Source: Amoeboaphelidium occidentale
Taxonomy: Eukaryota
Reading direction: 5' to 3'
Assembly (NCBI GenBank): GCA_023515795.1
Contig: JALGPX010000050.1
Span: forward strand, 1-64,000
DNA: 64,000 nt
A program made the position numbers and the translations under genes. Below are positions 1 through 63,007 of the stretch, piece by piece. The notes under the pieces were generated by a model. It worked only from the letters and a program-made list of their open reading frames with translations. It was not told where the DNA came from and made no database searches. How positions within the stretch are numbered: position 1 is the stretch's first letter; each line of letters opens with the position of its first letter.

Positions 1-693
1 ACAGAATTTGGGCCATTCCAATCCTTCAGTAATTCTTTAGACACTTCAGAGGGAAAGTATTCATTTAGTGCCTCTATAGGTGAACGTTTCAACAAATTGA
101 TTGAATCTATCTTGCGGTGCATTATATAGCTGAACAGTGTATCTTCAAATGAAGCACTCGGTACCAACTCGAACATCAGCACCTTCCCTTTTTCAAACCA
201 CTCTTGATCATACATCTCTCTTATGAAGTTTTCTGCCTAAATGTATAATTCCAATGTGCGGGAACATTCTTTCTGAACATCGATAACAAATTCTTCGCCA
301 TAGACGGCCTTTTATTGATTAATAATTGTTGGATCCCTGCTCAGAAAACTTCCAGGTTTTTTNNNNNNNNNNNNNNNNNTATAATTCCAGTGTGCGGGAA
401 CATTCTTTCTGAACATCGATACCAAATTCTTCGCCATAGACGGCCTTTTATTGATTAATAATTGTTGGATCCCTGCTCAGAAAACTTCCAGGTTTTTTCA
501 AATGCCTTGGCGCCTTCAGAAACTTTGAAACGAAGTCCGAACCCTCAGTTTCAGACAAGATCAACTCATTTGCAATCAACTGCACCCACAACGGCGGTTT
601 GAGAGCAGGGCTTTCTCTCTTGTGTCTCTTGGAGTTTTGCGTTTCTTCTTGGTCGTTCGAGCTTTCCATTTCATCGCCTTCCTGTCCCTGCAT
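1..693 (-). CDS. Partial multi-exon hypothetical protein, running off the window start
   Basis: ORF 448-693 plus an open frame at 1-236 (AENFIREMYDQEWFEKGK...) after a TTTAG acceptor. Interrupted by an N-gap with duplicated flanks. No family recognised. Confidence 0.4.
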
Positions 694-1042
694 CCTTGAC
701 AGCTTAAATCACTTAAAAGACTTCTTTTTATGCGGGAAATTGTGGAATCCTTTGCGCTCTATGATGAGTCATCGGAAAAAAAATCAGCTTGCCTCGAATC
801 GCTCCCATGTGGCGTAAAAACGAACTCCAACCGGAACAACTTATGCCATCTCATGTTTAATCAAAATTCGCGATAATTAATGTCCCAATTGATTTGGTTT
901 TCGCGGTAAAACTGTTAGACTATCACGTGTTCACTGGAATAATTAGCGATTCGATCATTACCAGTTTGCTCTTAGGTACAGTTAAACAAGACACAAATGT
1001 TTCAAAATATTTAATATTAAACCTTCCCTTGGTAATAAGATT

Positions 1043-7755: not shown

Positions 7756-10700
7756 TTATTGAGTTGGCATTAATTTGATCATCTTGCATAGAATAGCGGA
7801 CCATGAGAATAGATCACCAGCTTTCATTACTGCTCCGAGGTCGCTTTCAGGTAATTGACCTCTGATTGCTAAAAATTGTTCTGGAGCAATGAATGAAATA
7901 CTGCTGTTGTCCGGTCTGTAAATAGGGAATGCTTTTCTTGCAATTTCCTCAACGTCAGCTTTAATAGCACCACCGAATCCAGCTACAACTGCATAGAATG
8001 CACCAGATGCATCGCGATTGATGTAAACATTGCGAGGCTTAATATACCTGTGAGCATACCCACGGCCATGCAATGATTCTAATGCGCGAGCCATTCCCAA
8101 AACTAGGTTCAAAATTGTTGGAACAGTGAAAGGGATGTTCTTTGCCATGAAAACTTGTTCCAGTGTTCCAGGATGATTCTGGAAGATGATGGCAACAGGT
8201 TCCAAGCAGTAACCAAGTAACTTAAACGTTAGTCTGAATGTATTAATGACTTACCTGAGAGATGTTCTTGTGTTCATTGAATTTCCATAATAGTCCAACC
8301 TCTTGCCAGAACATTGTTTCAAATCCAGGGTTCATGCTGTAAGTATTTTCTCCATAAACTTTGACGACAACTTTGTCTCCCTTTGATCTTAAACCGTCTT
8401 TCAAGGCGACAGCAAGGTGTAGCATGTTACCGTTCTGGCTGCCAAGTTGTTGTTGCATATCAAAGTCGCTTCTTCTTACTTCCAAATAATCCGGAAGATC
8501 AGGGCGATTGATCTGTTCCTCAGCTTCTTGTTGAACTTCTTCACGTTGAACAACTTTTGGCTTTTCAGCTTCAGGTCTAGGAACCAACATTGCAGGATTC
8601 TCAATAACATTTGCTGGAATTTGACTTGTGACTGGTACTACTGCTGGACGCGGATAATCAATAGCAGGTTCGTTGCGAGGAGCTGAAGGCGTTGGTGCTG
8701 GAGCAGCTCCATATTCATCATGCGCAGCTTGAGTTACAGGAACCTTATTTGGTTGTGGCATTTGCTGTTGAGGCCTTGGCTGTTGTGGTTGCTGCGGTTG
8801 TTGCTGATAGTCTCCATTTGCAGTATAGTTTTGTCTAGCCATTGGCTGCTTTGACATTGCAGTAGCAGAATTGGCACCTGCTGTGTGATAAGCATCGCTA
8901 AGACTTCTTGGTGCACCAGTAGCNNNNNNNNNNNNNNNNNNNNTATAGTTTTGTCTAGCCATTGGTTGCTTTGACATTGCAGTAGCAGAATTGGCACCTG
9001 CTGTGTGATAAGCATCGCTAAGACTTCTTGGTGCACCAGTAGCACGAGTTGTGCTTGTGTGATATGCTTCTGAAAGACTTCTTGGACCAGCATTTCCGTC
9101 GTAAGGAGCATCTGGTGCGTAGTAAGATGCGCCTTGACTTTGAGCTTGTTGAGCCATCATGAATTGCCTCTTCTGCATTCTGGCTTGTTCACCAGATCGT
9201 CTTAACACAAATAGGAAGGTCCCAACTACAGCTAAACACAAAACTACAACTATTGCAATAATCGCGAATAATGGAATTCCAGCCTCTGGAGCTTCTTGTT
9301 GAAATCTGTTAAAATTCCTGCTTCTTGATAAAAACTCTTCGATGGTTGAAGCCATGCCTTCAGTTGTGCTTCTTGTAGTTGATAAAGAAACAGTGCTTGG
9401 ATTTCCAGTATCCGAAATAGTAGTAGTTACAATTGGCGGATCGCCGTTATCCTTGAATGACCAGATTTCATTTGAAACACCAGCTCCAAATTTTCCTCCT
9501 CCGAAAACCCATGCTGTTTTCAGAGACTGATCAAAATAAACTGTTACTTGCCAAATAGCACCTGGATAATTGGTGGGATCTTCAATACCCTGTTCATTAT
9601 AGTTGGCTCCGATCAATGGTTCTTTTGGACCACCTATCCATGTCCAAATGTTTGACTCAATAGAATATCTCCATAAGTCTGACATTGGTTCTGAATAGAA
9701 AAGTTCACCACTCTCATCAGTGTAAATCCTTGTTCCAGCAAATAGATACAATTTTTGAGTTTCGAAATCAATCCACATTGAAGCACCTGTTCTCGAACGA
9801 GGGTTATTGTTTGGAGAGGCAACATACTTTTCACCAAACGAACCGAAACTTTCAGACAAGAACTCTCCATTATGGAAAACCCATTCATTAGTAGCAACAT
9901 CATAGTGCCATAGATCATTCAGGTTTCCATAATCTGCCTGAGAGAAGCCTAAACCACCAAATATGTAGAACTTGCTGTTGACATCATCGTAATACTGAGC
10001 TGCAATGCTTCTAGCACCAGGAACATTTGTTGAAGCACTTACAAGAGGCGTTCCATAAACACCATTACGGTTTGGCTCATTAGGACCGTGCATCCAAACC
10101 CAATTATTACTTGTGATGTTATACTTCCACATATCGCTGAATCTGTCACCGTACGGCTGACTGAAAATCGCATCACTCATGGAAGCCCCGCCAAATACGA
10201 AGAATGAATCTGTGGTTGAGTCAAAAAAGTAATTATGGCCAAGTCTTGCAATAGGATTGTTTGATGGAGATTCAACTCCTCGAACACCATAAGACCCAGC
10301 AGCAACTTCTGGTCCGCCTTTCACATATTCAAAGTCTCCTTGGAATAAATCGAACTTAAAGAGCGAGTTTGTTACAGATAAGTCTGGAAAACTTCCTCCA
10401 AACACGTAAATCTGATTGTCTGTACAGAACCCTCCTGGTAACATTCTTCCACCCCAAGTAGCATCAAAGGATGAGTTGATATAAACAGGAAACGCTGATG
10501 AGCTCAGACCAGATCCTGCCTCCCATGTGTACATCTTATTTATGAAACTATAACTCCAAAGGTTGTCCGTGCGAATTCTGCCGTTCCAGCCAAAACCAAA
10601 GAACAACTTATCATCCATTCTGCATGTGAAGTATCCTCTCATTGCAGGTGGAGTGTTCGAAGGGTTTGATACACCCTTTCCTGCAGAAAATCCATTATCA

Positions 10701-10881
10701 CCATTCTCAAATGAACCTCCTATGGATGTTAGAATCTGATCATCAAACAATAGTGTTGTGTGCATGGGCTAGTGACAATGAACACCACCCCACGCATTCA
10801 ATAATTACCTATCCATACCCATCCTGCTAATGCTGGAGATGCTAGAAGTAGAGTTGATAAGACAAGCAGAGAGTGCCTCAT
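7756..10881 (-). CDS. Kelch-repeat ectodomain, single-pass receptor pseudokinase (3 exons)
   Basis: Signal-peptide exon MRHSLLVLSTLLLASPALAGWVWIG (10809-10881), introns 10720-10808 and 8221-8254. Kelch repeats (FGG...NDLW.Y), TM helix, Q/P-rich linker, then a kinase-like domain with HRYIKPRN and AGFG. Confidence 0.85.
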
Positions 10882-26022: not shown

Positions 26023-26055
26023 ATTGCCACCACGTGATTAAACGTTTTTTCTATA

Positions 26056-40190: not shown

Positions 40191-40215
40191 AACACCTTTA
40201 TTGAGAGGATGAATA

Positions 40216-43316: not shown

Positions 43317-46300
43317 ATGATCTCCATAAAGGCAATGTTGCTTTACTTTGTGGTTTCTTGCATACCACTTCTTGTCAGTTTACTTGAACATGAAAAGAGC
43401 TTCTTGATACAAGATGATGTAACAAATGGAATATCTATTGCTTTGTTCAAAGATTCGGTGCTGATAACATCTTCGAGCGATCTGGTCCAGAAAGACATTG
43501 AAACCGGTGCTATACAAAGAACGTTAAGAGCTCACACCAATGCGATCTATACTTTGACTGTTGTTGAAGATTCTCAATTGATCACTGCAGGATGGGATGA
43601 TATGATCGTGGTTTGGGATTTGGATTCAGGTGCGGTGCTACGAAGGATAAGACTTGGCTCCACAGAAACTTTCATCAAGAGCATTTCTTATGAAAATGGT
43701 CAGATATATGCTGGGGGAGCTGACCAATTTGTGAGGCGTATCAATTTGGTTTCTGGTATGGTAGTAAAATCGTGGTTTTATGAATGGTTTATCAGCTCTG
43801 TGGTGGTCAAAGATGGTTTCCTCTATGTTGGGATCCAAAGAGAAGTATCTCAAATTGAGAAAATCAGTGTCTCTACATCCGATGTAGTTTTGAGATTCGA
43901 GGGGCACACCACAGGTGTTTATTCTCTATATTATTATGAGAACTTGCTCTTCTCTGGTCCTGATAAAGATAGAATAATCGCATGGAACCCAGAAACAGGG
44001 AGTATTGTTCAAACTTTTTCTGGGCCCGCAGAAAGAATACTAGCTTTGGTGGTCCACGAAAAGGTTCTATACTCGGCCGGAGTCGATAACATTATCAAAT
44101 GGAATATTGATGATGGTCAATTGATCAAAATATTTCCAGCTCTTCATACAGATGTCATTAGAAGTCTGGGCTATAAAAACGGGACTTTGTTTTCTGGGTC
44201 AGATGATAACCTAGTGATAATGTGGAATGCGACAGACGCAACATCTATTTTCACATATGAGGGAAGAAAAAAGATCCTTTATGCCGCGGTTCTTTGGAAA
44301 TCTTTTCTAATAAGTGGCGGAGAAGATGGGATAATCAGATCTTGGGATGTTACTGTTAATAGTCTTGATCCATTGTTATCGGTGAATGAGCATTTCAGAG
44401 CTATTAATTGCATGGTCTTGTCGGGAGATTCACTCTTCTCGGGCGGATTTGATGCAACTATTAGACATTGGAATCTCACTAAGTTTACTTTTTTAAACGT
44501 TCTGAACGGTAAGTTGCTAGAATTGGTATTTTACTGTAGGTCACACGAGAAAAATTCTTGCATTAATAGCGGACTCTACATACTTGTATTCTGGGGGCGA
44601 TGATTTACGTATTAAACGATGGGAAGTGTCTACTGGTGTCGTTATTGCAGAGTTTATTGAGCACACTGACAAGATCTCTTCATTGCAGCTAAGCGATACT
44701 ATTTTGTTTTCGGCTTCGTATGATCCATCGATCAAGTTTTGGAATTTAGAAACAAGGGACAGCATCCGTACACTCAACTGTAAGATAATTCGTTGAAGCT
44801 AATTTCTTTTAGTTCCTAATGATGTTTTTGCTCTTCATCTTGCTGGAGAAACTTTGTTCAGTGGGTCGATGCTAGGAGTACACGCGTTTTCAACGATCAC
44901 CGGATTGACTCTTACCTTCCAATTAGGTGATTGTTATTGATGCAGTCTTATTTTTTTGTAGAAAACATCGGCTGCATANNNNNNNNNNNNNNNNNAAACT
45001 TTGTTCAGTGGGTCGATGCTAGGAGTACACGCGTTTTCAACGATAACCGGATTGACTCTTACCTTCCAATTAGGTGATTGTTATTGATGCAGTCTTATTT
45101 TTTTGTAGAAAACATCGGCTGCATATCAATTGCATCGTGGGATAATGGTGTAATAACTGGTCATCAAGACAGTTTGGTCAGAGCGCGAGATTTCAATTCT
45201 CTTGCTATTGTTGGCATATTCCAAGGTCACCAGGATTCAGTCAGATCTCTTACTTTCGATAGTACAGGGACACTTTATACTTCAAGTAGTGATGGCTCTG
45301 TAAAAAGGTGGAATATGGCTTCGAGGAAGGTTGCATTTTCCTTTGAGAACAGAAATAGTTCAGTCACAGTACTAACTGCAAGCGGAAATTATTTATATAT
45401 TGGTGTAAAAAGCGGAGTTGTCAATCGCTTTGACATCAGGAATGCAATTCTGGATCGCTCTTCTTCTTCACACAGTGGTTTTATTACTTCTTTCGTCCAT
45501 GTTAATGGCAGCCTTTATTCAGCAGGAAACGATGGAACTATTGTAAAATTGCCATCAAACCGAAAAGAAGAGCCTGTTGTAATTTTCTCCTCTTCACCTT
45601 TCCCTATTCGAAGTTTGACTTATTCCAAAGTCGAATTCGCTTTCATTCAAGGAGAAAATCAGATTTCATTCCTACCCTTTAATAGCGATGCAGACGTCTC
45701 GAGAACGATCATATCACCAACCCCAATTCTTTGTATAGCTGCTTACCAGTCTTTTGTGATATCTGGATCTAAATCTGGAATCATTTTTGTTTGGAATATG
45801 GATAAGCTCAAACTGGAATACGAGCTGAGAGGCCACACATCTCAGGTCAATATGGTTCTTATTGATCAGAGCTCCCTGTATTCTGCGTCGGATGATAAGA
45901 CAATTATTATTTGGTCTTTAGAGGAAAGATCAATCGTGAGAACATTGCAGCGATTATCCGCTAGCGCATTAGGTCATCTTGGCCCTGTCAATGCGATTTC
46001 TGTTTGCAACGGCTTACTATTCTCTGTTGGTTCAGATGTGGCTACTAGACGATGGAACATCCAGACGGGGAGACACGAAGGTGTGTATTTTGGCTTCTCA
46101 AAACCTGTTACTACTGTAATTTGCCACAACAGAACGGTAATTGCTGGTAGTGAAGATTTTTCCGTTTTGCTTTACAAACCAAATATTCCCGAGGAGAAAA
46201 TTCTTTCCACGTCCATAAAGACTCAGTGGCCAACTACAAATCGTGCAAGGAATACAAGAGTTGTGCGAAAAGCACAGACAATCACATCTGAAGCTTTATC

Positions 46301-47177
46301 TTCTTTAGTACCGATCTTTGGAGCGGCTGCAGGAGTTGTTGCTTTGCTTCTAATTGTCGTTGTGGTTTACTTGTTTGTTAAGGCAAAGTCTAAACAGTCC
46401 GCTTCTCCTAGAGATAGATCTACAGAAAACGAAGCGAATGAAACAACTACGGATCTCCAAACCGTTATCAACTCCGTTATGGGCATATCCCGCCATGCTG
46501 AGTATCTTTTACCCGTTAGTATAATCGCAAGAGTCAAGAAGCTTACAGCTGGTGGTGGCGGCGAAGTTTTTATTGCGAAAGTGATGGACCCTGTTTTATC
46601 AAAGAAATACGGAGACACTGTTATTCAGAAAGTAGTTTTCGTGAACCAAAAGTCCACGGAAGAGTCATTCTTTCAAGAGGTCGGTATAATGATTATGCTT
46701 TCATCATTTCCACACTTTTGTGAAATAATTGGATATACCGATAAACCTTTGTCGATGATACTTAAGTACTACCCTGATGGATCATTGACAGAGTGGTTGC
46801 AGAATAATTTTTACGGCGAAAAGATTGTGGTCAAATGCACGAAGGAGATTTCCAAAGCATTAAGTGTAATGCACTCTCATTACTTAGCGCATTGTGATAT
46901 TAAGACTCAGAATGTGTTGGTTAGAGTCGATAATGGTATTCCGTCCTGTTATCTAACTGATTTCGGCATTACTCAAGTGTTATCTGATAAAATTTTGGCA
47001 TCTGCAATGTTCCAAGTTGTTAACTTAAGGGGTCTATCTATACCATATGCTTCACCAGAGGCATTCATCAACTTTAGATCAAAAAATTACGCAAATATCA
47101 ACTTCAAGAAGTATGATATCTATTCCCTTGGTATGATTCTTTATGAAGTCATGGCCAAACGCATACCATGGAAGTGA
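43317..47177 (+). CDS. WD40-ectodomain receptor-like kinase 1 (4 exons)
   Basis: Signal peptide, GH...WD repeats, TM at about 46308-46380, kinase GGGGEV/VIQK/HCDIKTQN/DFG/YASPE. Introns 44509-44539, 44780-44812 and 44927-44961 (the last duplicated across the gap). Confidence 0.9.
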
Positions 47178-47261
47178 TTTTATAATAAATGCTATCTTGA
47201 GGAAATTCTCACACGTTGGTACCAGCTTTCAAGGGCAAACCGTTTGTCTCGTTGATCCAAC

Positions 47262-50200
47262 ATGAAACAACAACTTTTAGCGCTGGTTTTGCTTCTTACG
47301 TCAACACTTACTTTGATCTTAAGCTTGGAACATGAGAAAAGTTTCTTGCTTAAAGATGGTTCGACTTCTGTGTACTCCGTTGCTCTGTATCGAAACTCTT
47401 TGCTCCACACTTCAACTAGTGATATTGTCCAAAAGGATGTCGACACAGGGGCTTTTCAAAGAACATTCAGAGCCCACAAGGGTCGAGTTATGGATTTAAT
47501 TGTTACGAATAGTTCAACGATGTTCAGCGCTGGTATTGATGATACGATCGTAATGTGGGACTTGGAGACAGGTGCCATCATCAAGAGATTCCGCTTAGGA
47601 GCTTCAGGTACTTTGGTCCAAAGCATATCTTTGCAAGGTGATCACATATTTGCTGGCGGAATAGACTTCAAGTTCAGACAAGTGAATGTCATAACAGGAA
47701 TAGTTATGAGAACATTCGGTTAGTTTTTATGTCGTTTGCCCTTATACTTAAAGATGTTCGTAGCCGCATTGAAAAGGTTGTAGCAGACGGAGACTTTCTT
47801 TACATTGGAAAATCAGGAATTCCTCCCTTGGCTAAAGTGTCCATTCTGAATGGAAGGAATCAGTTGATATTCGACGAACATTCAGATGGAGTTTTTGATA
47901 TAAGGCTGTATAATGGTATGCTGTTTTCTGCATCTGATGATGCGTTTATCGTTTGCTGGAATGTTCTCAACGCTGCTATTATTGCAACGTATGTTGGGCA
48001 CACCGATGGTGTACGTGTGATAACAATTTGGAATGATGTGCTCTACTCTTCGTCTAAAGATCATACAATCATCAAGTGGGACATCTCTAGTACGGAGATC
48101 CTAAAGATATCTCCATATTTCACTTCATCTGGAGCACGCAGCTTCGCATTCAGCGATTCTTATTTAATCTCCGGAGGCACAGATGGAATTCTTCTTAAAT
48201 GGGATTTCAATCTCGGGTCACCTCTATTTTCATATTCCGGCTCTGACAAACGTTTAAGAAACGTTGTTTCGTGGAAGAATTATGTTATCAGTGGCGGCTT
48301 CACAAACGAAATCAAACAGTGGGACACATCACAAAATAGTCCAGATCCTTTTTTCATTTATGCTGGTAACGAAGAATCTGTAAATTGCCTCTACATTTTC
48401 GAGGATGCTCTTTTCTCAGGAGGGCTTGACACTTTAGTTTTATTGTGGAACTTGACGAGTATGATTAAGTCTGGTGTGCTTCGTGGTAAAATTCGAGTCT
48501 ATTCGCTTATTTTTGAAAGGACATACAGAAGGTGTTTTAGCTATCGTGGCTGACCAAAATTTTCTTCACTCAGTCGGAGATAATCGAAACATCAAACAGT
48601 GGATTTGGAAAACAGGAACCTTCAACGGCGAGCTACTCACTGGCACAGACTCAATTCAATACTTGCAGCTGAGCAATGAAGGCCTATTTTCTGGATCCGA
48701 ACAGTATGTGCTGTACAAATGGGATGTAACATCCAAAACTGGAATTCAAGTATTTGTTTGTAAGTATTTGCTCATATTCTAACTTTAGCTTTAAACCAAA
48801 TTTTCACCATCCGCATTTTCGAAAAATACATACTGATAGGATCGTTTGGTCTTGCTAAAATTTCTATTGAGAACGGAGAATCGATTGCAAGTCAAACAGG
48901 CAAGTTTTGTTCTATCTTTCTTATATTTAGAAAGCGTTATATGTTTGAGTTTAGTATCAAGCTATACTAGAATATTTTCTGGACATGATGACGGTCTGAT
49001 AAGAGGAAGGGATGTGCTTTCCTTGGGTGTTTTGGAGACATACCAGGGTCATGTTGATGCTGTTTTTTCATTGTCTATTGATGAGGCAGGCGCCTTGTAT
49101 TCTGCCAGCTTGGATGGATCGGTCAGGCGTTGGAGTTACATGACACGAAGAACAGCTTTCTCATTTGAAGATAGAAGTGGTTCGGTATCTTCTCTTACTG
49201 TCCTTGAAAATCATCTTTTTATTGGCACAAGGAGCGGGAGTTTAAACACTTTTGATTTGAGTGACACAACAATACAAGGATCCATGAAAATGCACAACGC
49301 CGCAGTCACTTCTTTGATTACAGATGATAGTAGAGTGTTTACATCTGGTCTGGATGGTGTGATTTTTAGTATGAGACAGGGCTTCAATGAAAACGCTAGC
49401 ATTATTCTGAACTACTCCCCTCTGTCTCTGAAAGGCCTCTTTAACCTCAAGAATGTTTTGTTTTTTATAAGTGACGATACAGAGATTTATTCTATTGGCA
49501 CCAACAGCTCAAATCCTGCGACCAAACGTGTAACATCAGGAATTCCTTTGAACTGTCTCTCTGGGTACAACGGCTTGATATTGGGTGGCTCAAAATCGGG
49601 CAGCATCTTTGCTTGGAGCTTGGATACTGCCGTACTAACATACGAACTGAGGGGTCACTCTTCTCAGGTGAATTCACTTGGAGTTTCAGGTGATTTATTG
49701 GTCTCTGCATCAGATGACCAAAGCATCATTATTTGGTCTTTAGTTGATATGGCTTCGGTAAATGTACTAAAAAGAGTATCCAGCGATTCTCTAGGTCACA
49801 TTGGTCCTGTAAATTCTATTTCATTGTGCAACGGTTATGTTTTCTCGGGAGGGAGTGATGCAACGACCAGGAGATGGAACATTCTTAGTGGCAAGCACGA
49901 AGATGTTTACTTTGGCGCCTCAAAATCGACAACGACTGTTTTATGTCACAATGAAACAGTATATACTGGTGGAGAAGATTCTGCAGTATTAATGTTCAGG
50001 CCAGTCTTTTCTAAAGAAAGTAATTATAAGTCGACTGGTACTTCAAGTCGAGATAGAAGGCTTGTTCAAACCAGATTAAGGCAAAGAATCTCATTTTCCG
50101 GAATGATAGATCTCCAAACTATCATCCCAATGATCGTTGGTTTTGCCATACTAGCAATGGTTATTTTAGGATGCACTATCTATATATTTCGTTACAGAAA

Positions 50201-50999
50201 TTCAAAAGCCAGACGAGATATCTCTCCAGGGCAAAAAACTTCATCCGAGGAAACAAGCCAGGCTGTTACTGACTTGCAAACAGTTGTAAACTCGGTCATT
50301 GGCATTTCAAAACATGCAGCATTTCTTGTAGAAAAGTGGGCAATTGCAAGAGATAAGAAAATTGCGGCCGGTGGTGGAGGGGAGTTGTATCTTGCAAAAA
50401 TCATGGATCCTGCGCTAAAAAGAAAGGCCAGAGAAGAAACTGTAATACAAAAAGTTGTGTTTTTGAAAAACAAGATTAACGAAGAGGCATTCTTCCAAGA
50501 AGTTGGGATCATGATTATGCTTTCTTCATTCCCGTGCTTTTGCAGCATAATAGCTTATACGGAAGATCCATTTTCAATGATTTTAAAATACTACCCCGAA
50601 GGAGCATTGCATGAATGGTTGAGATCCAACAAGTATAGCAAAAAAGTTGCTGTTGCAATTTTGTCAGATACTGCTTCTGCTCTGAAAATCATGCATTCAT
50701 ACTACTTGGCACATTGTGATCTAAAATCCAAGAATATCTTGGTTGAGTTAGTTAACGGACAACCGTCGTTTAGATTGACAGACTTTGGTATCACCCAAAT
50801 TCTATCTGAAAAGGTTATGGACTCGAGATCATTCAAAATAATCAATCTAAGAGGCTTGTCTGTGGACTACGCATCACCCGAAGCGTTTAGAAATTTCAGA
50901 ACCTCAAAGTATGTTCGTGTTGATTTCAAAATGTATGATATTTACTCCTACGGCTGTTTAGTGAAAGAAGTTCTAACAAAAACATCTCCGTGGGGCTAA
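47262..50999 (+). CDS. WD40-ectodomain receptor-like kinase 2 (5 exons)
   Basis: Same architecture. Introns 47719-47753, 48486-48519, 48760-48788 and 48900-48930 (GC-AG). HCDLKSKN and DFG. Confidence 0.9.
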
Positions 51000-51113
51000 A
51001 GACTATTCATGTTGTGAACAATAAACTTTAGTTGAGTTGAGAATCTGTTCGAACTCTCGCAAACATGTCGCAGAGTCTTTCCAGACGCTTTTTCGTTTCA
51101 CCTTCAAGTCACA

Positions 51114-54100
51114 ATGAAAAACAACAGAGCTTTTTTGGCTATTATCTTAACAGTCATTTTGACCCTATCTAAAGCAATTGTGCAAGAGAAGAGCTTCATC
51201 CTGAAGAATACCACACCAAGCGTCTTTTGCATAGCTTTGTACCAAAACTCCTTGCTACTGACCTCGTTCTATGATATTGTACAGAAGGACATTGAAACTG
51301 GTAAAACACAAAGGACCTTAAGGGGACATGAGAACATTATCTTTTCGTTTGTGGTGACTTCAGATTCCAAGTTGATCAGCTCAGCCATTGATGATTCTGT
51401 TGTTCTTTGGGACTTGCTCACAGGCTCAGTGTTGCAACGGATCAAGTTACAACAGAAGCAAACGATTATTTCAACCATCTCAGTTCAAGATGATCAAGTT
51501 TTTACAGGTGGTTTTGATAGCCTGGTAAGGCAGATCGATTTAACGGAAGGCAGAGTAGTTAAAACGTTTGGTACATTATCCATTATCATTAGCTGACTTT
51601 TCTAGCTTTCGGTGACATAATTACAAGCATCGTGGTCAAGGGGGACTTTATTTACGTTGCTACAGCGCAGCAAGGCAACTCAATACAAAAACGGCGCATT
51701 TCCACATCTGAAACTTCTCTTTTCTTCACTGGACACACAGATACCGTTAGTTGCCTGGTCTTACGAGAAGAAACGTTATTTTCCGGCTCAAATGATAAGA
51801 CTATAATCTTTTGGAATGTCGTCAACGGCCAGAGCATAAGGATTCTGGTTGGTCACGCTGGCAGCGTAACAGCATTGACTATCTTAGGCAAGGATTTGTA
51901 CTCTGGGTCGAATGATGGTATGGTCATCAAATGGGATATTGCAAGCGGCGATAAGTTGATCGATTTTCCGAGGCGCCACACGAACGTGGTTAAAAGTCTT
52001 GCATGTAACCAGAATAGTCTTTTCTCTGGATCGGACGATAAATCGGTAATACGATGGAACAAGTTAAATGGTTCTCCTGAATACTTTTACTTAAGTCAAG
52101 AAATTAGAATAAGGAGCATGTTTTTGTGGAAAAATTTCATAATTGGTGGAAGAGACGATTCTGATATTCAACTTGTTGATGCTTCTATTCTCAAGTTGGA
52201 ACCAATAGCATTGATGAAAGGCCATATTTCTAGCGTACTGAGTCTTGTCCCGTATGAGAATGAACTCTTCTCTGGAAGCTTGGATACTACAATCAAACTA
52301 TGGAGCTTGACGACTTTGACAGTTCAGACTGAATTAAGAGGCAATCTTTCGTTTTCGGCTCATAATTTTAGGACACACTGGTGCTGTAAGAACACTTTCG
52401 GTTGATAATTTGTACTTATTCTCCGGCGGGGACGATCTTATTGTCAGACAATGGACAAAATCCACATGGTTCATTACGGAGTTCATAGGGCATGTCGGTC
52501 AGGTTAACAATTTACAACTTGAAAATATCAATCTTTTCTCTGGATCTCAAGATAAAGATGTAAGAGTATGGGATACAAGATCAGGATTTAATTTCCAAAC
52601 AGTTACTGGTAAATAATTTTCTTAGAAAGACTTACTTCAAGCAACAAATATTGTCAATGTCATACACTTACTTCAGAATTCGTTCATTGTAGGAACCAAC
52701 ATTGGGCTGCAATCATTTTCCAAGACAAATGGCGAGAGCTTAATTGTCTACGCTGGTAAATCCCTCTTTTTTTAACGCTGACCTTTAGAATTGACTTCCT
52801 GTACCTCATTGGCTGCAACAGACCTGGTCCTTTTTAGTGGTCATGATAATAATTTGATCTACACCAGAGAATTCAATCTGCTGTTTGCTTTGACGACGTA
52901 CTTGAGCCATAATGATGTGATCACATCTCTCCACATGGATTCTACAGGAGTGCTATATTCTGCAAGTCTAGACGGGCAGATCCTCAAATGGGATACCAAA
53001 TTAAGAAAAGTAGCTTTTTCATTTGAAGACAGAAGTAGGGCTGTTACTTCCTTGGCTGCAGTCCAAAATTACCTTGTAGTCGGTCTTCAGAGTGGATATA
53101 TCAACATTTTTAACATCGAAGACACTATCCTTATCGATACTGTTTGGCTTCACAACAAATCAGTTGACTCTCTTGCAGCAGTTGGCGATCAAGTGTTTTC
53201 GTGCAGTTCGGATGGAAATTTGAAGTCTTTCAATCCTTTTGAGAGGTTTAACCAAGAAGTTGTTTCTGATCATGGAAAAATCCCCATTCGAGGACTAATA
53301 CAGCATGATAATAACTTGCTTTACATCAAAGGAGACTATGATATTATTATATCCTCCTCAAATGCTTCCTCTCATGTTCTTAGAACCATAAGTTCTTCTT
53401 ACCCTGTTTTTTGCATCACTTCAACGACGGACAAGCTTTTTGCAGCATCTCTCTCGGGAGAAATATTCGCTTGGGATCTCAAATCTGGACGCTTTGAATT
53501 CAGCTTAGTCGGCCATCTTGCAGTAGTAAACTCCTTGCTGGTGGCGGATGGATCGTTGTTTTCAGCATCGGACGATAAGTCAATAATTCAATGGTCGCTG
53601 GAGAGACGCGATATTGTGAGAACATACAAAAGGTATTCGGCCGCTGCACTGGGTCATACTGGCCCTGTTAATGCGATTACTTTTTGCTCTGGACTTTTAC
53701 TATCTGTCGGAAAAGATGACACGCTTAGAGTTTGGAACATTGACACTGGAAACCAAGTGGATCAATTTCGATACTTTAAGTCTGCTACAGCTGTTATTTG
53801 TCATAACAATATTTCATACGCAGGTAGTGAGGATTTCTCCGTATTAATGTTTGATTTGGAGAAAATCAATGTGCAAAGTGGACCAGAAACGTCCAGAATT
53901 AAAACAATAAGTACCAAAAAGAGGAAACGGTCCAAAAATGTTCGAGCAACCAGGGAAAGCGAAGACTTATCTCAACGCTGGATCGTTCTGATTATTGCTA
54001 GCTCGTCAGTATTAGTAATACTCATTACTGGTTTTGTTTTCTACGTATGGAGGTCCAAAATAGCATCCAAGTCCGCCTCGCCTACTGTTAGCAGTACAGC

Positions 54101-54848
54101 AGATTCAACTTTTACAGAAATGGATCTTCAAACTGTCGTTAATTCTGTAATGGGTATTTCAAAACACGCGGAGTATATTATTGACAATTCAGTGGTTGCA
54201 AAAGTAAAGAAGATTGCAACTGGCGGAGGCGGAGATCTTTTTCTGTGCAAAGTTATGGATCCGCGTCTTGTTAAGACAACTGGTGACTTTGTGGTTCAAA
54301 AGTTGGTGTTTGTTAACAACAAGTTAAAGGAAGAGGCTTTTTATCAGGAGGTTGGAATTATGGTTATGCTTTCGTCATTCCCACACTTTTGCAAAATTCT
54401 TGGCTACACTGAGAAACCGTTATCGATTATTATGCGCTATTACTTAGAAGGATCTCTATTCGATTGGATCAGAAACAGAAGCCTTAGCAGGTCAATCGCA
54501 ATTCAAATTCTACTGGAAGTGTCTAGAGCATTGAAAGTAATGCATTCTAATTATCTGGCTCATTGTGATTTAAAGTCCCAAAATATTCTTGTTGAGATCG
54601 TGAATGGCATTCCAGCTTTCCGTTTGACGGATTTCGGCATCACAGAAATCCTTTCGGATAGAATAATCGCATCGAAGGCTTTTCGTGTTGTCAATTTGCG
54701 TGGTCTATCAATTCTATATTCTTCACCAGAAGCCTTCGTTTGTTACAAAACGAAACATTACGTAGGTGTTGATTTTAAGAAGTTTGATGTCTACTCTCTT
54801 GCATGCCTGTCGTATGAGGTTCTGACACAAAAATCGCCATGGAACTGA
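51114..54848 (+). CDS. WD40-ectodomain receptor-like kinase 3 (5 exons)
   Basis: Same architecture. Introns 51571-51605, 52341-52371 (GC-AG), 52609-52641 and 52756-52788. HCDLKSQN and DFG. Confidence 0.9.
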
Positions 54849-54894
54849 ATTAATAAAACACTACTAAAACGCATTGTCAATGCCTTCAATTAAT

Positions 54895-57639
54895 CTATTT
54901 GAATTTTGACCACGGTGTTCGTCTGGAAATCATCTCGTAAAGTAAGGATGCCCAAGAGTAAACATCTCCCGCTTTGAAGGTATCCGCACTATCGCTAAAA
55001 ACAGTTTTAGCTCTTTGTCTTTTAAATGTCTCAGGTGAAGCATAGGCAAACGATAATCCTCTAATGTTTGAAACATTGAAACCGTTAACCACCAAACTCA
55101 TAGAAAGAACTTGAGTGATACCGAAATCAGTCAGAACACAAAATGCAAAACCATCCTTATCAGTATCAATTAAAACATTAGCACTCTTGATGTCTGAATG
55201 CGACAAATCGTGCTGATGAAGAGCACTTATTCCAGAAGCAATATCGGAGATGAAATGCAGCATGATTCTTTTTGTGATTCTTTTCTCGTTCTTTATGAAT
55301 TTATCCAATGGTCCAAGGCGATAATGCTTCATAAGGATACTCAGAGGCTCTGATCTACAATAACCAATTATCTTTGCAATGTTTTTATGGTTCTTCAGCA
55401 TTGCCATAATGCTCAACTCTTGTTCAAACAGTTTAGCTTGTCTAGCGTTCAAGTTCTGGTTACTTGAATTGGAAATCAATCGCTTTACAACTATGACATT
55501 TCCAAAAATACTGGTCTTTTCATCCAAAGCATCGGCCAGGTACACCTCACCTCCCCCTCCTTGTGAAAGTTTTGACGTTACTCGAAAGCTTGTATCTGGT
55601 ACTTCCATGTAAGCTGGGACCGAAAGCACTTCCTGGCTAAAGGAAACAAGAGTGGCTGTCTCTGTTGAATACGAATCAGGTCTAGCAGGAGTTACCTTAT
55701 AGACCGGCGGAACAGATGGGAGGTAGATTGCTGACTTGAATTGAGCGTAATCACGTCTTTGCCAATATCTTTTATAAAAGAAATAGGCTGCCAATAATAT
55801 TAAAAGTAGTGCGAAACCAGCGCCACCAATTATTATATAGATTAAAGTAGACAAATCTAGGAGATTTTCTAATGTCACTGAATTGTCCGGACTAACGCTA
55901 GGATTAACCGATCGAGAAATCAATGCTCTTCTTGAGGATCTGTTGTCGTCAACATCACTAACAGAAGTTTTGTTAGAGTAAGTAGAACTCGGATGAAAAG
56001 TTGTTAATGCTGATGCAACAGAAGAAGTTATTTGACTCTCATCCCTTATTGCTGAAGTTTGGTATTCCCCAATCCTTGTTTCCGCTGCTGTTGTTAATAT
56101 TTCTGTTGATATTGCTTTCTCTGAAGCAGTTGTCGTGGAAGTTTCTTCTAATTTCGTAGTTGGTGTAGAAACAGGCGGTACCTCTGAGGCAGTTGAAGTA
56201 GAAGAAAATTCAGACGTAATTTCGGTTGTGCTCGTAGTTTGTGATGTTGTGGTTGTGCTACTTGTAGATCCCACGACTAGTTCTGGTGCAGCAAATTGAA
56301 GTTTCCAAAGATCGCCATTATCTTGCCCGCCGAAAATGTATGACGCGTTCATGCTACTAAAAAATGCAGAACCACCTCTCCATCCTGGTCGATTTTGACT
56401 GCTTTGTACACGATAGGTCCCGTATTTTGGTGCAATCTTGGAGCAAGTATCATTAATGACAAGGTCCCATGTAAAGGTTTGAACATCAAACAGCCACTCG
56501 TCTGAACATTCATAGAAATCAATATTGGCATCCGTATAATCACCTCCTTGAAGCAAAATCTGATTCCTTCCCGCATCGTACAACCAATTTGGAGATATCT
56601 TTGCTGCTGGATAAGCATAGCGAGAGTCAACCGTATAATTCCCAGGATCGTATGCATATGGTGACCCTCCAACAAATGCCCACATACCAGCTGTGATATT
56701 GTACATCCAAGTCTCTGATGTGCAAGCCCAGGTAGTATCCATAGATCCTCTAATTGGGAGAGGTCCACAACCTCCTGTAACAAAAAGGAGGTTGTCATGT
56801 GTTACAATCATGGATGCTGTTCTTCGTAAACCTGGCTTATTTCCACTACTCAATGCACCATAAGACTCGATTATTGAGAACTCATTGGTGCTTGAGCTCC
56901 ACAGGGCAGTAAATCGGTTGTTCGACACGCGATACCTCCAAAGAGTATTGGAAGTATATCCAGAGCCGTCGCCACCAAATATGTAAAGAAGTTTATCATT
57001 ATGGCTGTATGCAAATGCAGCGACTTGAAGACCGCCGATATTTGTAGTGTCAGACTCTTCCATGGGAACAAATACAGGCATCTCATCAAGCTCTGTTGTT
57101 CCCCCTATCCACGTAAACATGTTTGTATCAACATCATAAGACCAAAGGTCATTCAAATAACCAAAGTAGGGGTAAATTGTTTTTCCTATGCCTCCAATTA
57201 TGAAGAACTTTCTCAAATCAGAATCATAGAAGTATATAAACTCCCCACGAGAACCCGGATAAATACTACTGTTTGTATCTCCAATAGAAGTATAAACTCC
57301 AACTGCTTCTACCTGATTGCTTCCGTGAATCCATGTCCAAGCAGAGGAAGCATCTCTTGAGAAATCGCATTTCCACAAATCATTAGTTCTATCATACCCC
57401 AATTCATAGTCTGAGTATGTATAACCCCCAAATACATATGCAGCGTTTTTTAGATCATCAACGAACATGCCTGAGTAATGCCGTGACCCGACTTTATTTG
57501 ATGCTAGATAGACACCTCTCGATGGCGGATACACTGCGCCTGTTCTATAAGTTTCACCTCCCCACCAGGTCCAATTGTACGGGATAGACTGTGTAAAGAC
57601 TGAGGATGCTAATAGTGGCGCCAACAGTTGAATGATCAT
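54895..57639 (-). CDS. Kelch-ectodomain receptor-like kinase (intronless)
   Basis: Signal peptide, Kelch repeats (FGG...NDLW), S/T-rich stalk, TM helix and kinase QGGGGEV/VVK/HSDIKSAN/DFG/YASPE. Confidence 0.9.
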   Translation of the reverse strand: MIIQLLAPLLASSVFTQSIPYNWTWWGGETYRTGAVYPPSRGVYLASNKVGSRHYSGMFVDDLKNAAYVFGGYTYSDYELGYDRTNDLWKCDFSRDASSAWTWIHGSNQVEAVGVYTSIGDTNSSIYPGSRGEFIYFYDSDLRKFFIIGGIGKTIYPYFGYLNDLWSYDVDTNMFTWIGGTTELDEMPVFVPMEESDTTNIGGLQVAAFAYSHNDKLLYIFGGDGSGYTSNTLWRYRVSNNRFTALWSSSTNEFSIIESYGALSSGNKPGLRRTASMIVTHDNLLFVTGGCGPLPIRGSMDTTWACTSETWMYNITAGMWAFVGGSPYAYDPGNYTVDSRYAYPAAKISPNWLYDAGRNQILLQGGDYTDANIDFYECSDEWLFDVQTFTWDLVINDTCSKIAPKYGTYRVQSSQNRPGWRGGSAFFSSMNASYIFGGQDNGDLWKLQFAAPELVVGSTSSTTTTSQTTSTTEITSEFSSTSTASEVPPVSTPTTKLEETSTTTASEKAISTEILTTAAETRIGEYQTSAIRDESQITSSVASALTTFHPSSTYSNKTSVSDVDDNRSSRRALISRSVNPSVSPDNSVTLENLLDLSTLIYIIIGGAGFALLLILLAAYFFYKRYWQRRDYAQFKSAIYLPSVPPVYKVTPARPDSYSTETATLVSFSQEVLSVPAYMEVPDTSFRVTSKLSQGGGGEVYLADALDEKTSIFGNVIVVKRLISNSSNQNLNARQAKLFEQELSIMAMLKNHKNIAKIIGYCRSEPLSILMKHYRLGPLDKFIKNEKRITKRIMLHFISDIASGISALHQHDLSHSDIKSANVLIDTDKDGFAFCVLTDFGITQVLSMSLVVNGFNVSNIRGLSFAYASPETFKRQRAKTVFSDSADTFKAGDVYSWASLLYEMISRRTPWSKFK

Positions 57640-57840
57640 TTGTTGAAAGTACCATTCGAAGCGCTAATCAGTAAGCTTGCAAATCATGACACCAGCGGAT
57701 TGGTTGAAATGTAAACTGAGCATAACTAAAACTTTGCTTGTTTAGCATGTTCAGGATGCATTATGAAAATATGGTTACAATTGAGTGTTCAAGGACTGTG
57801 CTATAATATATCGGAAAAGATAAATTGCTAATGTTTATTC

Positions 57841-58323
57841 TCATGATCCACGACCGCCTCCATTGCCATATCCACGACGAGGTTGCGGCGGTGGTGGAGG
57901 TGGGCGACGTGGTGAAGGTGGACGAGGAGGTGGTGGAGGAGGCATGCGCGGTGGAGGTGGGGGTACATGTGGTGGCGAAGTTGTCATTGGTGGTGGCGGA
58001 GGCACAACAGTAGAAGTTTCAGGCCGTGACAGGGTGCTGCTCGTTGGTTGAGGAGGTGGAGTACTGCTTGTTTGAGTTGGTGGAACTGGTGGAACCAAAG
58101 TTGTTTCTTGTGCTGGATATGATATAGATACAGTTGTTGTCGGACCTACTGGTGGAAGAGGCGTCATGTACGTGACAGCTGGTGGAGATGGAATATGTGT
58201 CGACAGATCAGGAAGAGCAGACGTTTTTCGTGCTGAACCAGAACAAGGCGCAGCTCCATTCGCGTCGGGAGCAGCAAATGTTGTCAGTGAAAGCAAAGTT
58301 GAAACAATCAGGATGATCTTCAT
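57841..58323 (-). CDS. Small secreted Pro/Thr-rich (extensin-like) protein
   Basis: Signal peptide MKIILIVSTLLSLTTFA, poly-Pro runs and an R/G-rich tail. Upstream TATA-like CATAAAAAG and downstream AATAAA. Confidence 0.7.
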   Translation of the reverse strand: MKIILIVSTLLSLTTFAAPDANGAAPCSGSARKTSALPDLSTHIPSPPAVTYMTPLPPVGPTTTVSISYPAQETTLVPPVPPTQTSSTPPPQPTSSTLSRPETSTVVPPPPPMTTSPPHVPPPPPRMPPPPPPRPPSPRRPPPPPPQPRRGYGNGGGRGS

Positions 58324-59263
58324 AATACAATGTCGATTGCCAAAACAATAGATTTAGAAATGACATTGACAGTTACGGCCGCTTTTTATGCGATGCTTGT
58401 GTTAGTCGCACATCTTTTTATTGGCTAGGGAGTTACACAATTTAGATCTCATGTCGCACAATTACATGAATCCACGTTACACAGGTTTGACAGGTGATTT
58501 AGAAGAAAACCTGTACGATTTTCCTTAAAATAATCACCGTTTATGAAAACAAAATTAAGCTCTTCTTTTTGCTCATTATAGCGGCAAAATTCTATCACCT
58601 CTTGAACATAACGTTGAAACAAAGGGTTCAAAATGCAGATGATAGAGGTGTGCTCATTAATGGACCATTCAAGATACACTTCATTAAGGTGAAATTGGAA
58701 CGACCACGTTTGAAGGCACTAGAGTAATGCTAAATAAAGTGATTATCATTGTTTTCAGAGTGATTATATCTCGGTTTAAAACGTCGCAATATTCCTTATT
58801 GGCAACGGCTCGCACTTTCATGCTAAGAGATAATTGAGTTAGTCAAAGCCCTATCATTCTTTTTTTGTAGAAAATGTTTCATAGCAATGTATGCGCGTTA
58901 TTATGACAAATAGTTATTTCAAGCTTTATCCCGTTGCTGCCGACAAGACTCACGAAAAGAAATTTGATTATAACTTTTCATCACATTCCATCTGGGCTAG
59001 GGCCCCGATGTGTAGCAGATTCTCTTGATGATGTCTTTGTATAGTGTAAGTCAATGCCTGAATGAGCGGTCTTCGCCATGAGCCCAGCAAGGAAATTTGC
59101 GTACCTATCAACAATGATATTGCTGTATTTCAAGGTATATTGATTTTTATCAACGGAGCTATGTTTCATGAAAAGAGCTGTCAGACAAGCCGATGTTTGA
59201 AATTCTTTGAGAGTACATTCTAGTTGTTTCCCTGCGATATCCGTTTGAAAAACAGCCTTTTTT

Positions 59264-62200
59264 ATGATGATCATCCGAATGTTCATATCTTTACTGTCAT
59301 TACTAAGCTTAGTCTCTTTGGTTTCAACGCTGCAGCATGAGAAGAGCTTTGTTTTTGATAGTTCTGCCTCTAATGTTGTAGACATAGCGCTGTACAATCG
59401 GTCATTGCTCATAACAGCTTCAAATGCAGTAGTCCAGAAGGATATTGAAACAGGCATTTTTCTTAGAAAATTTTCTGCGCATTCAGGCAAAATTCGTAGT
59501 TTTTTGGTTGTCAATGGCTCTATAATGATAACCTCAGCTTGGGACGATATGATCATCGTTTGGGACTTGGCTACTGGCTCAATTCTGAGGAGAATATGGC
59601 TGGAAGCCTTAAATACATATCCTTCGAGCATAAAGTTAGAGAGCAATAGTTTGTTTGTATGTGGACTTGATGGTAGGGTAAGGATTGTGAATATGATGTC
59701 TGGTAGAGTTGTTCAAACAACCTGTAATTTCTTTCTTGATTTCTTATGATTTCTTTAGCCCTGAACGAAGAAGTAAATGTAATTGCTGTTAAAGATGATA
59801 ATTTTTATGTCGGAAAACGAGGAATATCATCTCAGTTGGAAAAATATTCTACAACTTCCAGATCTTTACAACTGATGTATGTGGGCCATAAAGATTCTGT
59901 CTTCAGTTTGTCTCTGCAAGAGGGGTTGCTTTTTTCTGGCTCATATGATACCAACATTGTCTGTTGGGATGAAATGAATGGACAAATAATCCGTATATAT
60001 GAAGGCCATCCGGCACCAATTCAGGTTATTTCTATTTTTGAAAATTATTTGTATTCCAGTGGTGAACAAGGTATTATATTGAAATGGAATATTGATTCCG
60101 GAATCATTGAAACAAGCTTTCCGGCTCTTCATGGAAGCACCATTTGGTGTTTGGCGTTTGAGAGCGGAAGTTTGTTCTCAGGGTCTATTGATACAACTGT
60201 TGTCCGGTGGGATGTAAACTCTTCATCCGCACTTTTTTCATATGAGGGTCGCATAATCAAGCTTGGCTGTCTTGTTTTGTGGAAAAATGCCGTTATAGCT
60301 GGAGGTAATAATCCACTATTGTCGATTCAGGACAAGTCGCAAGATTCTGTTTCACCAGTCGAAATTACGTCTGGGCATTTCGGTGATGTTATCTGTATGA
60401 TATTACTCGATGACACTCTTTTTTCAGGAAGTACCGATACGACCATTCGCCGCCGAAGTTTGATCGACTACGCTGATTTGAAAATTTATTACGGTAAGAA
60501 TTTGCCCATCAGGATTTAAATTTTATAGGCCATTCCAATATTGTTAGTTCGTTGGCTTTAGACGAAAATTACATGTATTCTGGTTCTTATGATTCTGTGA
60601 TTAAACGTTGGAATATATCAACCGGATCTGTGGATAAAGAGTATATTGGTCATACAGATTTAGTCTGCGGTATTCAAGTGAAAAGAGAGTTTCTTTATTC
60701 TGCTTCTTTTAATAATGATTTGAGAGTTTGGGATAAAGAATTGGAGATCACGATCAATGCTTTTCAGTGTAAGTTTGTACCGCGAATTAACAGTTTAGAT
60801 TTCAAAGAAGTGTTCTGCATCTTCGTTTATGATGATTTTCTTATTGTGGGAACATTTGGTATCGACATTATTTCGACCTCCACTGGTGTACTGTTGGCTG
60901 GACAAAAAGGTTTAACACGGAAGTCTTCACCACTAATTTTATAGAAAATACTATTTGCTTTACAATTATAGCTACAAAGTTGCTTGTTTATTCAGGGCAC
61001 GGCGATGGTGTGATAAGAGGAAGAGATCTGATGACTTTAAATGTTTTGCAATCGTTTCAGGGCCACAAAGATAATGTGATGTCACTTTGTTTGGATGAGG
61101 CTGGTATCTTATTTTCGACGGGGTTTGATGGCTCTATTAAGAAATGGAACATGGCTTCCAGAAGAGTTTCTTTTTCATATGAAAATCGAAATGGTTCTGT
61201 AACAGCATTGGTTGCAACGAGTGGACTCTTGGTGGTCGGAACAAGGCAAGGATTAATCAACTCGTTTGACATACGAACTGCGTACATAATCAAGTCCACA
61301 GCTCACCATCAAAGTTCTGTGACATCCTTGACTATATATGATGGGATGATCTACTCAACTGGGAGGGACGGGATTGTTCTTGCATTTCGTCCGGCTGATA
61401 CCTCGATCTCGGATGTTTTGTACGATACAGAGACTCTCCCTATCGCAAGCGCGACTCTCAACATGTTAAATTTGATAATAGTCAGAGGTGAGAACGAGGT
61501 TATTTTTTTACCCAGGACGAACTCAAGTAGTTCAGTGAGAAGTCTTAATTATGCTTTGCCAATTGTGAGTATCGCAGCCAATGATGATATGATATTTGCT
61601 GGCACAAAGGCTGGGTCGATTGTCGTTTGGAGCGCCACATCTTTGCAGACTTTGTTTTATATGGAAGAACACACTTCTCAAGTCAATTATCTTTTGCTGA
61701 CAGATTCTTCGCTCTATTCCGCATCAAATGACAAAACCGTCATCAAATGGTCTGTAGAGCAAAGACGAAAGATGATTGTGTTTAAAAGATTTTCTTCGAC
61801 GGCACTTGGACACTTGGGCCCCGTGAATTCTTTATCTTTGTCCGGCGATACTTTGTTTTCTGCTGGTTCAGATTTATCAACTCGGCGATGGAATGCACAA
61901 ACAGGCCGCCATGAAGATGTGTACTTTGGAGCCACAAAGTCTGTAATGTCTGTTTTTTGCTTCAACGGATCTGTTTTTGCTGGTAGTGAAGATTTCTCGG
62001 TGCTGATGTATTCACGTAACCTTCCGTTGAATGCCGCAACTCGAAATGCGATTAGCCTTTCAACAAAAACTAAGCGAGGGGTCAGAAGAAAGATTGTTTC
62101 GAGAACTAATTACTCTGGCTCTGAAAATTCACAAACTGTATTTTTAGTTGGTGGAATCGTTGCCTTATTGATAATTGCCGTTACCGCTATTTGGGCATTA

Positions 62201-63007
62201 TTCTATTGTTCATCGAAACCAAGTATTAAGCAGATTGAGAAACATGGGTTGTTTATACAGGAATTATCAGAAATTACTACTGATTTGGAAACGGTTGTTA
62301 ACACCGTTGTCGGCTTATCGAAACATGCTGCTTACATGGTGGCGAACTCAAACGTTGCAACTATTAAGAAGCTTGCATCTGGTGGTGGAGGAGAGATATT
62401 TTTGGCTCGAGTTATGAACGCCTTTTTAACAGAAAAGACCGGAAATCTGGTGATACAGAAGATAGTTTTCATCAAGAACTCCAAATCAGAGGAAGCTTTC
62501 TACCAAGAAGTCGGGATAATGATCATGTTATCTCCGTTTCCGAACTTCTGTCGTATAATCGGACTAACAGAAAAACCTGCGTCGATGATCTTGCAGTATT
62601 ATCCTGACGGTTCATTGCAAAGCTGGATTCAAGGAAACAGGTATGACCGAGGTGCTATCGCAAAAATTTCAAAAGAAATTTCTTCTGCTTTGAAAATTAT
62701 GCATTCGCATTACTTGGCTCACTGTGATATTAAACCTCAGAATGTTCTGATTGAAATTGTGGAGGGAATTCCCACATGTTTTGTAACCGATTTCGGTATT
62801 ACTCAAGTACTATCTGATAAGATCCTGGCATCTCGTGATTTTCAAGTGACTAATCTTAGGGGATTATCAGTACCTTATGCTGCCCCAGAAGCATTTTCCT
62901 GTTTCATAAAAAGAGAGTTTTTTGGAGTTGACTTGAAGAAATTTGATATTTACTCGTTCGCTTGTGTAGTACTAGAACTTCTAACTAGAAAGATTCCGTG
63001 GTGCTGA
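59264..63007 (+). CDS. WD40-ectodomain receptor-like kinase 4 (5 exons)
   Basis: Same architecture. Introns 59724-59758, 60494-60528, 60769-60798 and 60910-60944. HCDIKPQN, DFG and YAAPE. Confidence 0.9.

Follow-up and report, generated by a model that had tools for sequence, protein, structure and literature searches.

Aphelids, the sister group of fungi, are obligate parasitoids of algae with relevance to algal cultivation, and an expansion of their receptor-like kinases was reportedly described by Mikhailov et al. in 2022 (Curr Biol, doi 10.1016/j.cub.2022.08.071). Receptor-like kinase sets differ between aphelids and fungi (PMC10608142, citing Mikhailov et al. 2022), and fungi possess almost no transmembrane kinases, with 54 counted in 18 species (PMC10463195), in a paper that mentions neither aphelids nor WD40, Kelch or propellers. 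Here we analyse a stretch of 64,000 nucleotides of Amoeboaphelidium occidentale (contig JALGPX010000050.1, positions 1 to 64,000; hereafter the window), in which a cluster of receptor-like kinase genes at 43317..63007 comprises four WD40 genes in tandem (G1 to G4) and one Kelch gene on the opposite strand (K5). The interest of this locus lies more in its kinases, which are clipped behind helix F, than in the WD40 ectodomains.

An extracellular WD40-type propeller on a receptor kinase is already known from CRINKLY4, whose WD40 domain carries signalling function (bioRxiv 10.1101/2020.08.10.245050). On the kinase side, the activation segment and the subdomain formed by helices G, H and I (G-H-I) are considered co-evolved hallmarks of eukaryotic protein kinases (ePKs; PMC3415842), and G-H-I is missing from the eukaryote-like kinases (ELKs; PMC3415842), while RIO kinases lack both subdomains X-XI and the activation loop (PMC2564912). 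In the literature searched we found no family with an activation segment but without G-H-I, nor any aphelid WD40 receptors, although the primary aphelid genome paper and its supplements may describe such a family or such ectodomains.

Six-frame translation revealed four WD40 exon runs, each closing with a long exon that runs from WD40 repeats through a hydrophobic segment into a kinase, and the spliced models of G1 to G4 are open from ATG to stop (1197-1204 aa). This agrees with the original prediction, which had proposed four paralogs of about 1,200 aa in which a signal peptide, WD40 repeats and a single transmembrane (TM) helix precede the kinase, plus a fifth, Kelch-ectodomain kinase on the opposite strand, which we recover as a single exon. 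Separate transcripts for the WD40 and kinase regions are impossible, because the last exon of each gene is one open frame through WD40, TM and kinase. Pfam scans matched WD40/propeller families and Pkinase, the latter with E values of 1e-23 to 1e-26; the original prediction overlooked that the kinase is incomplete.

All five kinases of the cluster stop 1-4 residues past a PW motif behind helix F, and in all five the Pkinase match ends at position 197-198 of 263, so that these kinases have neither the roughly 65 aa of the G-H-I subdomain nor the Glu-Arg salt bridge that belongs to it; correspondingly, the sequence match to the 280-residue BRAF chain ends at residue 213. Since the missing helices are a hallmark of eukaryotic protein kinases, these receptors are likely to signal in an unusual way. 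The stops of the five genes are TGA, TAA, TGA, TAG and TGA, and an AATAAA follows within 53 nt of the stop in 4/4 WD40 genes (not in K5), compared with 7/21 other gene ends and a background of about 2%. None of the five genes has a GT donor of the tested pattern within its final 45 nt, and the distance to the next gene is only about 46-115 nt for G1, G2, G3 and K5 (the ATG of G2 lies about 85 nt past the G1 stop, and the stops of K5 and G3 are about 46 nt apart). Because the stop codons differ, AATAAA follows and there is no space for another exon, we do not regard the truncation as an artefact. Stop-codon read-through was also considered and ruled out, since TGA, TAA and TAG are all used and further stops lie downstream.

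The same end was found throughout the family. In an alignment of the five window kinases with 66 close relatives (71 sequences, after dropping P0032, a rearranged partial sequence), 68 end 0-11 residues past the Trp of PW and 3 end before it; the break point is precise, as PW is followed by just one residue in 51 of these 68. A profile search of 1.84 billion representatives returned 490 matches (clusters) at E<=1e-30, and at least 18 close paralogs bear the name A. occidentale, which bears out the large repertoire that had been predicted. Tail lengths were taken from the best 150 of the 490 matches: among the 139 matched to the profile end, the tail is no longer than 15 residues in 121, 16-40 residues in 7 and longer in 11. 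These 11 comprise four family members with a complete G-H-I (P0184, P0219, P0221 and P0247, all environmental), four other kinases (P0141 from an oomycete, P0198 from a basidiomycete, P0206 and P0243) and three representatives in whose tails the G-H-I profile found no match. In Paraphelidium tribonemae, 6/6 proteins seen lack G-H-I (P0166, P0169, P0180, P0191, P0284 and P0285), and because these proteins derive from a Trinity transcriptome (PMC6299283), the clipped end occurs in the mature RNA of a second genus. The 7 weak loci (26-36% identity) from a metagenome locus scan were set aside.

A tree of 36 clipped and 4 full-length family kinases with 10 outgroup kinases, built without a named RLK/Pelle reference, recovered the receptor-kinase family as one clade (100/99) with the four full-length members nested inside it, the starred branches forcing 2 changes, and a larger quick tree of 143 rows agrees. 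Monophyly of the clipped kinases was not rejected by an approximately unbiased (AU) test (p 0.35). One early loss of G-H-I, several losses or a regain are all possible, and the four full-length members are candidates for the ancestral state or for a co-receptor.

The catalytic machinery that precedes the break is conserved. Across 96 aligned kinases the helix-C Glu, the catalytic-loop His, Asp and Lys, the DFG Asp and Gly, the APE Pro and the helix-F Asp are invariant, and conservation is 90% or more at the beta-3 Lys, the catalytic Asn and the APE Glu. Among the 71 close relatives, the Lys is kept in 70, the Glu in 71, the catalytic Asp in 70 and the DFG Asp in 69; the catalytic loop reads HCD[IL]KxxN, with HCD and the Lys each in 69/71, and among 142 representatives HCD occurs in 94, HRD in 6 and no motif was found in 5. 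By these motifs the clipped kinases are non-arginine-aspartate (non-RD) kinases of Ser/Thr type. The activation segment is present, with about 30 residues from DFG to APE, Y-A-[SA]-P-E occurs in about 68/71, and a helix follows APE in the model. A sixth receptor of the window, K6, lies outside the array; its kinase also ends just after helix F, carries HRY in place of HxD and GFG in place of DFG, and is likely a pseudokinase member of the same family. Catalytic residues can therefore decay in the family, yet most members keep them.

The clipped domain alone (247 residues) was predicted with high confidence (predicted local distance difference test, pLDDT, 94.8; predicted template modelling score, pTM, 0.89) and ends in helix F. 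Its top fold matches are ePKs, and superposition gives 1.8 A over 188 aligned residues both with Csk (Z 21.5) and with BRAF (Z 21.2). The window kinases share only 17-27% identity with solved kinases. In PKA, Gly 225 of helix F packs against helix H. This position is Gly in 37% of 185 clipped kinases (20 of the 205 clipped sequences were unparsed) versus 96% of 55 full-length controls, mostly bacterial. The relaxed glycine, together with its hydrophobic neighbours, suggests an adaptation to the loss of G-H-I in which the surface is still covered by something.

Hydrophobicity profiles show two main peaks per protein, at the N-terminus and about 290 aa before the C-terminus. The N-terminal hydrophobic core (Kyte-Doolittle 9-mer 2.5-3.4) is present in 4/4 WD40 genes and is followed by a conserved HEKSF-type strand, and the TM segment reaches at least 2.16 on the same scale in 65/65 family sequences, in agreement with one TM helix in the AlphaFold model. 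The net charge of the 12 residues after the TM averages +3.3 against 0.0 before it and is higher after it in 64/65; because the charge is more positive after the TM, a type I topology is predicted, and the extracellular placement of the WD40 region put forward by the original prediction is upheld on this basis. An AlphaFold run that used 73 sequences, made on the paralog P0008, which is co-linear with the window genes without large gaps, returned 21 blades, a disordered stalk, a TM helix and the kinase (pLDDT 87.3, pTM 0.65). Single seven-bladed propellers superpose at about 2 A on its residues 8-284 and 295-565 and on the range 1..852, the last of which we interpret as a third propeller that the conserved N-terminal strand of the mature protein is predicted to close, so the model supports the earlier count of three propellers with 21 blades. 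The closest Foldseek hits, at low TM-scores, are multi-propeller proteins that reside inside cells, Trm734 among them. Among 14 full-length paralogs, mean identity is 40% in the WD40 region, compared with 59% in the kinase and 72% in the juxtamembrane segment; stalk, TM and linker share 16-17%. The high divergence that the original prediction noted in the ectodomain is uneven, as blades 1-2, 14 and 19-21 are 51-66% identical and blades 4, 11, 12, 16 and 17 only 23-29%. In 39 longer representatives that were scanned, the same kinase goes with ectodomains that include WD40, Kelch, NHL and ephrin/TNFR-like Cys-rich repeats. One Paraphelidium protein, P0169, combines a WD40 propeller with TNFR/ephrin-like Cys-rich repeats, a TM and a clipped kinase.

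On balance we consider it probable that these predicted type I receptors cluster on a ligand and that their minimal non-RD kinase phosphorylates by proximity. An outside surface would bind the triple-propeller ectodomain and bring receptors together, and clustering would let the clipped, probably still active kinase phosphorylate its neighbours. Because the G-H-I docking surface is missing, substrates would be picked by proximity, such as the linker, rich in Ser and Thr (28% S/T), or a partner receptor's activation segment, and a partner or the next kinase in the cluster would shield the hydrophobic outer face of helix F. The conserved blades may act as scaffold and the variable ones (4, 11-12 and 16-17) may carry specificity, most plausibly for algal host-cell surfaces. 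Gene structure, the single TM, intact catalytic motifs and the family-wide loss of G-H-I can be read from the sequences themselves; a kinase core that is stable without G-H-I is predicted by modelling, and host sensing is suggested by lifestyle and repertoire.

Several observations weigh against this proposal. The ectodomain shows no enrichment of N-glycosylation sequons (85 observed versus 120 expected from shuffles), only 5 Cys columns are conserved (in at least 8/14 paralogs) across the 21 blades, and Pfam scans detected no Cys-rich domain in the window WD40 receptors; with sequons and cysteines unsupportive, the extracellular location depends on the putative signal peptide and the charge around the TM. 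A basic patch (21% K/R) lies 10-30 aa before the TM in the stalks of G1-G4, and dibasic KR/RR occurs in the stalk of 48/65 family members, compared with 183/793 WD40 windows and 34 expected from stalk shuffles; at a guess, the patch could be a kexin-type processing site or a charged binding patch. Helix-F positions 221, 228 and 232 are about as hydrophobic as in full kinases, so that the clipped domain may be unstable alone, and AlphaFold confidence is no proof of its stability. The Gly-rich loop is modified at its first Gly and at its aromatic tip, and Ile or Val replaces the Ala of VAIK; ATP binding could be weakened by these changes. The APE Glu is left without its Arg partner; in ordinary kinases G-H-I and the Glu208-Arg280 pair matter for catalysis, and mutation of the pair strongly affects PKA (PMC3415842). 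In plant HT1, a stop that removes subdomains X-XI behaves as a recessive allele (PMC4892718). Moreover, in the non-RD receptor kinase EFR, activity is kept but dispensable for signalling (PMC8463890, PMC11259431), so that conserved motifs are no proof that catalysis is the output. A two-copy kinase complex prediction, in which the alignment was not used, scored 0.01 and counts neither for nor against.

That the ectodomains serve self/non-self recognition, mating, developmental signalling or adhesion instead of host sensing, with the kinase working as proposed above, is a doubtful but serious alternative, which concerns the ligand only and overlaps with those that follow. CRINKLY4 uses its propeller in development and offers a parallel; the paralogs are old, with synonymous sites between the window paralogs saturated to a degree that defeats dN/dS (pS 0.72-0.89), and among close environmental relatives the propeller is just modestly more divergent than the kinase (24/454 versus 9/241, and 46/322 versus 14/241). 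A large, ectodomain-swapping non-RD repertoire in an obligate parasitoid would nevertheless fit the recognition of foreign surfaces.

It seems rather unlikely that the clipped kinases are nucleotide-binding switches by which many variable receptors turn on, through allostery, one or a small number of full-length partner kinases, in the way that EFR activates BAK1 (PMC11259431), perhaps with the bared helix-F face as docking site. Besides the EFR precedent and the hydrophobicity of that face, such a role would suit both K6, degenerate yet retained, and the four members with full G-H-I inside the family clade. However, word-based, length-limited searches, including those started from two of these members, found no full-length relative named as A. 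occidentale, Paraphelidium or any other aphelid; the four could be relics predating a single loss, given the AU result, and catalysis explains the near-invariant catalytic Asp, Lys and Asn more simply. A split kinase, in which a small separate protein common to all receptors supplies G-H-I in trans and so switches the kinase on, would account for the very precise common break point and again for the hydrophobic face, but it is improbable, as the packing glycine is relaxed and the G-H-I profile, run over all six reading frames of the window, found no match (best E 0.15). Finally, that the truncation is an annotation artefact, with a distant or trans-spliced exon completing the kinase, is scarcely credible: many environmental relatives are single-exon gene calls and the A. 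occidentale 3' ends are read from DNA alone, but the varied stops, the lack of donors, the AATAAA signals, the tight spacing and the transcript-derived Paraphelidium proteins all speak against it.

Table 1. Positions of the receptor-like kinase genes and their parts in the window.
Feature	Position	Strand	Remarks
G1 WD40 receptor-like kinase	43317..47177	+	1204 aa
G1 introns	44509-44539, 44780-44812, 45074-45108	+	
G1 TM	about 46323-46385	+	
G1 juxtamembrane and clipped kinase	46443-47174	+	
G1 clipped 3' end	47175..47189	+	stop two codons past PW, AATAAA 9 nt on
G2 WD40 receptor-like kinase	47262..50999	+	1202 aa; environmental relative P0034 88% identical
G2 introns	47719-47753, 48486-48519, 48760-48788, 48900-48930 (GC-AG)	+	
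G2 TM	about 50133-50195	+	
G2 kinase end	50996	+	
G3 WD40 receptor-like kinase	51114..54848	+	1200 aa
G3 introns	51571-51605, 52341-52371 (GC-AG), 52609-52641, 52756-52788	+	
G3 TM	about 53982-54044	+	
K5 Kelch-propeller receptor-like kinase	54895..57639	-	single exon, 914 aa
K5 TM	about 55845-55779	-	Ser/Thr-rich stalk; clipped kinase, HSD catalytic loop
G4 WD40 receptor-like kinase	59279..63007	+	1197 aa; environmental relative P0052 95% identical
G4 introns	59724-59758, 60494-60528, 60769-60798, 60910-60944	+	
G4 TM	about 62135-62197	+	
G4 kinase end	63004	+	
K6 sixth receptor, outside array	7756..10881	-	Kelch ectodomain, TM, Gln/Pro-rich linker, degenerate kinase; first-intron acceptor provisional

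The introns of G1-G4 measure 29-35 nt and their positions match between paralogs, the first intron common to G2-G4 being missing from G1. The two GC-AG introns, in G2 and G3, stand where paralogs have GT-AG. G3 is the same gene as the A. occidentale NCBI protein MP638_003508 (P0037) apart from two introns, as the NCBI model misplaces the GC-AG intron 52341-52371 and the next one. G1 contains a scaffold gap whose two flanks duplicate each other (129/130 nt), and because of this repeat 44849-44995 was treated as an assembly duplication; with one copy removed, the frame is open and aligns with the paralogs without large gaps. Four further N gaps lie at 363, 8924, 12635 and 43216, the flank of the gap at 8924 being also repeated in translation. 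The GC content of the window is about 40%, and that tabulated for A. occidentale is 39.93% (PMC10608142).

Inside the array, 57841-58323 (-) holds a small gene with a signal-peptide-like start and a Pro-rich tail that has no Pfam match. Just upstream of the array, 39012-42857 carries genes for a glycosyltransferase of family 25 and for a methyltransferase, along with a Pfam-negative gene that by eye is similar to the glycosyltransferase; they are possibly surface-glycan genes. Elsewhere in the window, 14680-15633 (-) encodes a membrane protein with a C-terminal SH3 as its sole Pfam match, which we take to resemble fungal Sho1, and 15863-16708 (-) a CAP-domain protein; 29234-32857 (+) encodes a RasGAP that has both PH and C2 domains, and the coiled-coil region ahead of them, which has no Pfam match, seems F-BAR-like by eye. 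Three class-3 lipase genes with signal-peptide-like starts lie at 4414-5718 (-), 24859-26019 (+) and 26038-27018 (+), two of them in tandem.

A natural family in which G-H-I has been lost but the activation segment kept, and in which the catalytic residues have stayed intact in two or more aphelid genera, makes the role of these helices, a long-standing question, directly testable with a recombinant protein of 245 residues; if the kinase is active, it would break the textbook co-evolved pair of activation segment and G-H-I. The receptors are also candidates for host recognition in the sister group of fungi. Taken further, the reading we prefer, ligand-clustered receptors with a proximity-driven kinase, would extend to a whole aphelid repertoire built on an active ePK without G-H-I, in which clustering or a partner substitutes for the helices and triple WD40, Kelch and NHL propellers read algal hosts, a possibility that we put forward tentatively.

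Compared with known systems, the window receptors almost surely belong to the same gene class as the aphelid kinases of Mikhailov et al. 2022, from the same organism. With CRINKLY4/ACR4 they share an extracellular seven-bladed WD40-type propeller, a single TM and a cytoplasmic kinase; CRINKLY4 has one propeller with a disulfide per blade and a cysteine-rich domain, whereas the window genes encode three propellers with 5 conserved Cys, lack a cysteine-rich domain and end in a clipped kinase, and it is P0169 whose domain order, WD40 followed by Cys-rich TNFR-like repeats, parallels CRINKLY4. EFR-type non-RD receptor kinases likewise combine a large variable ectodomain with a catalytic loop without Arg, but their ectodomain is made of leucine-rich repeats, their kinase is complete and their co-receptor is known. 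Receptor tyrosine kinases have an HRDLAARN-type loop, as in the EGFR alignment, while the window family has HCD[IL]KxxN, with Lys instead. Canonical ePKs such as BRAF, Csk, RIPK2 and JAK2 share with the window kinases the N-lobe, catalytic loop, DFG, the activation segment with APE and helices E and F, but not the absence of helices G, H and I and of the subdomain-XI Arg. RIO kinases and ELKs resemble the aphelid kinases in lacking G-H-I or subdomains X-XI, but they have no activation segment, and ELKs retain other helices after F, whereas the aphelid kinases keep a full activation segment with APE and nothing after helix F.

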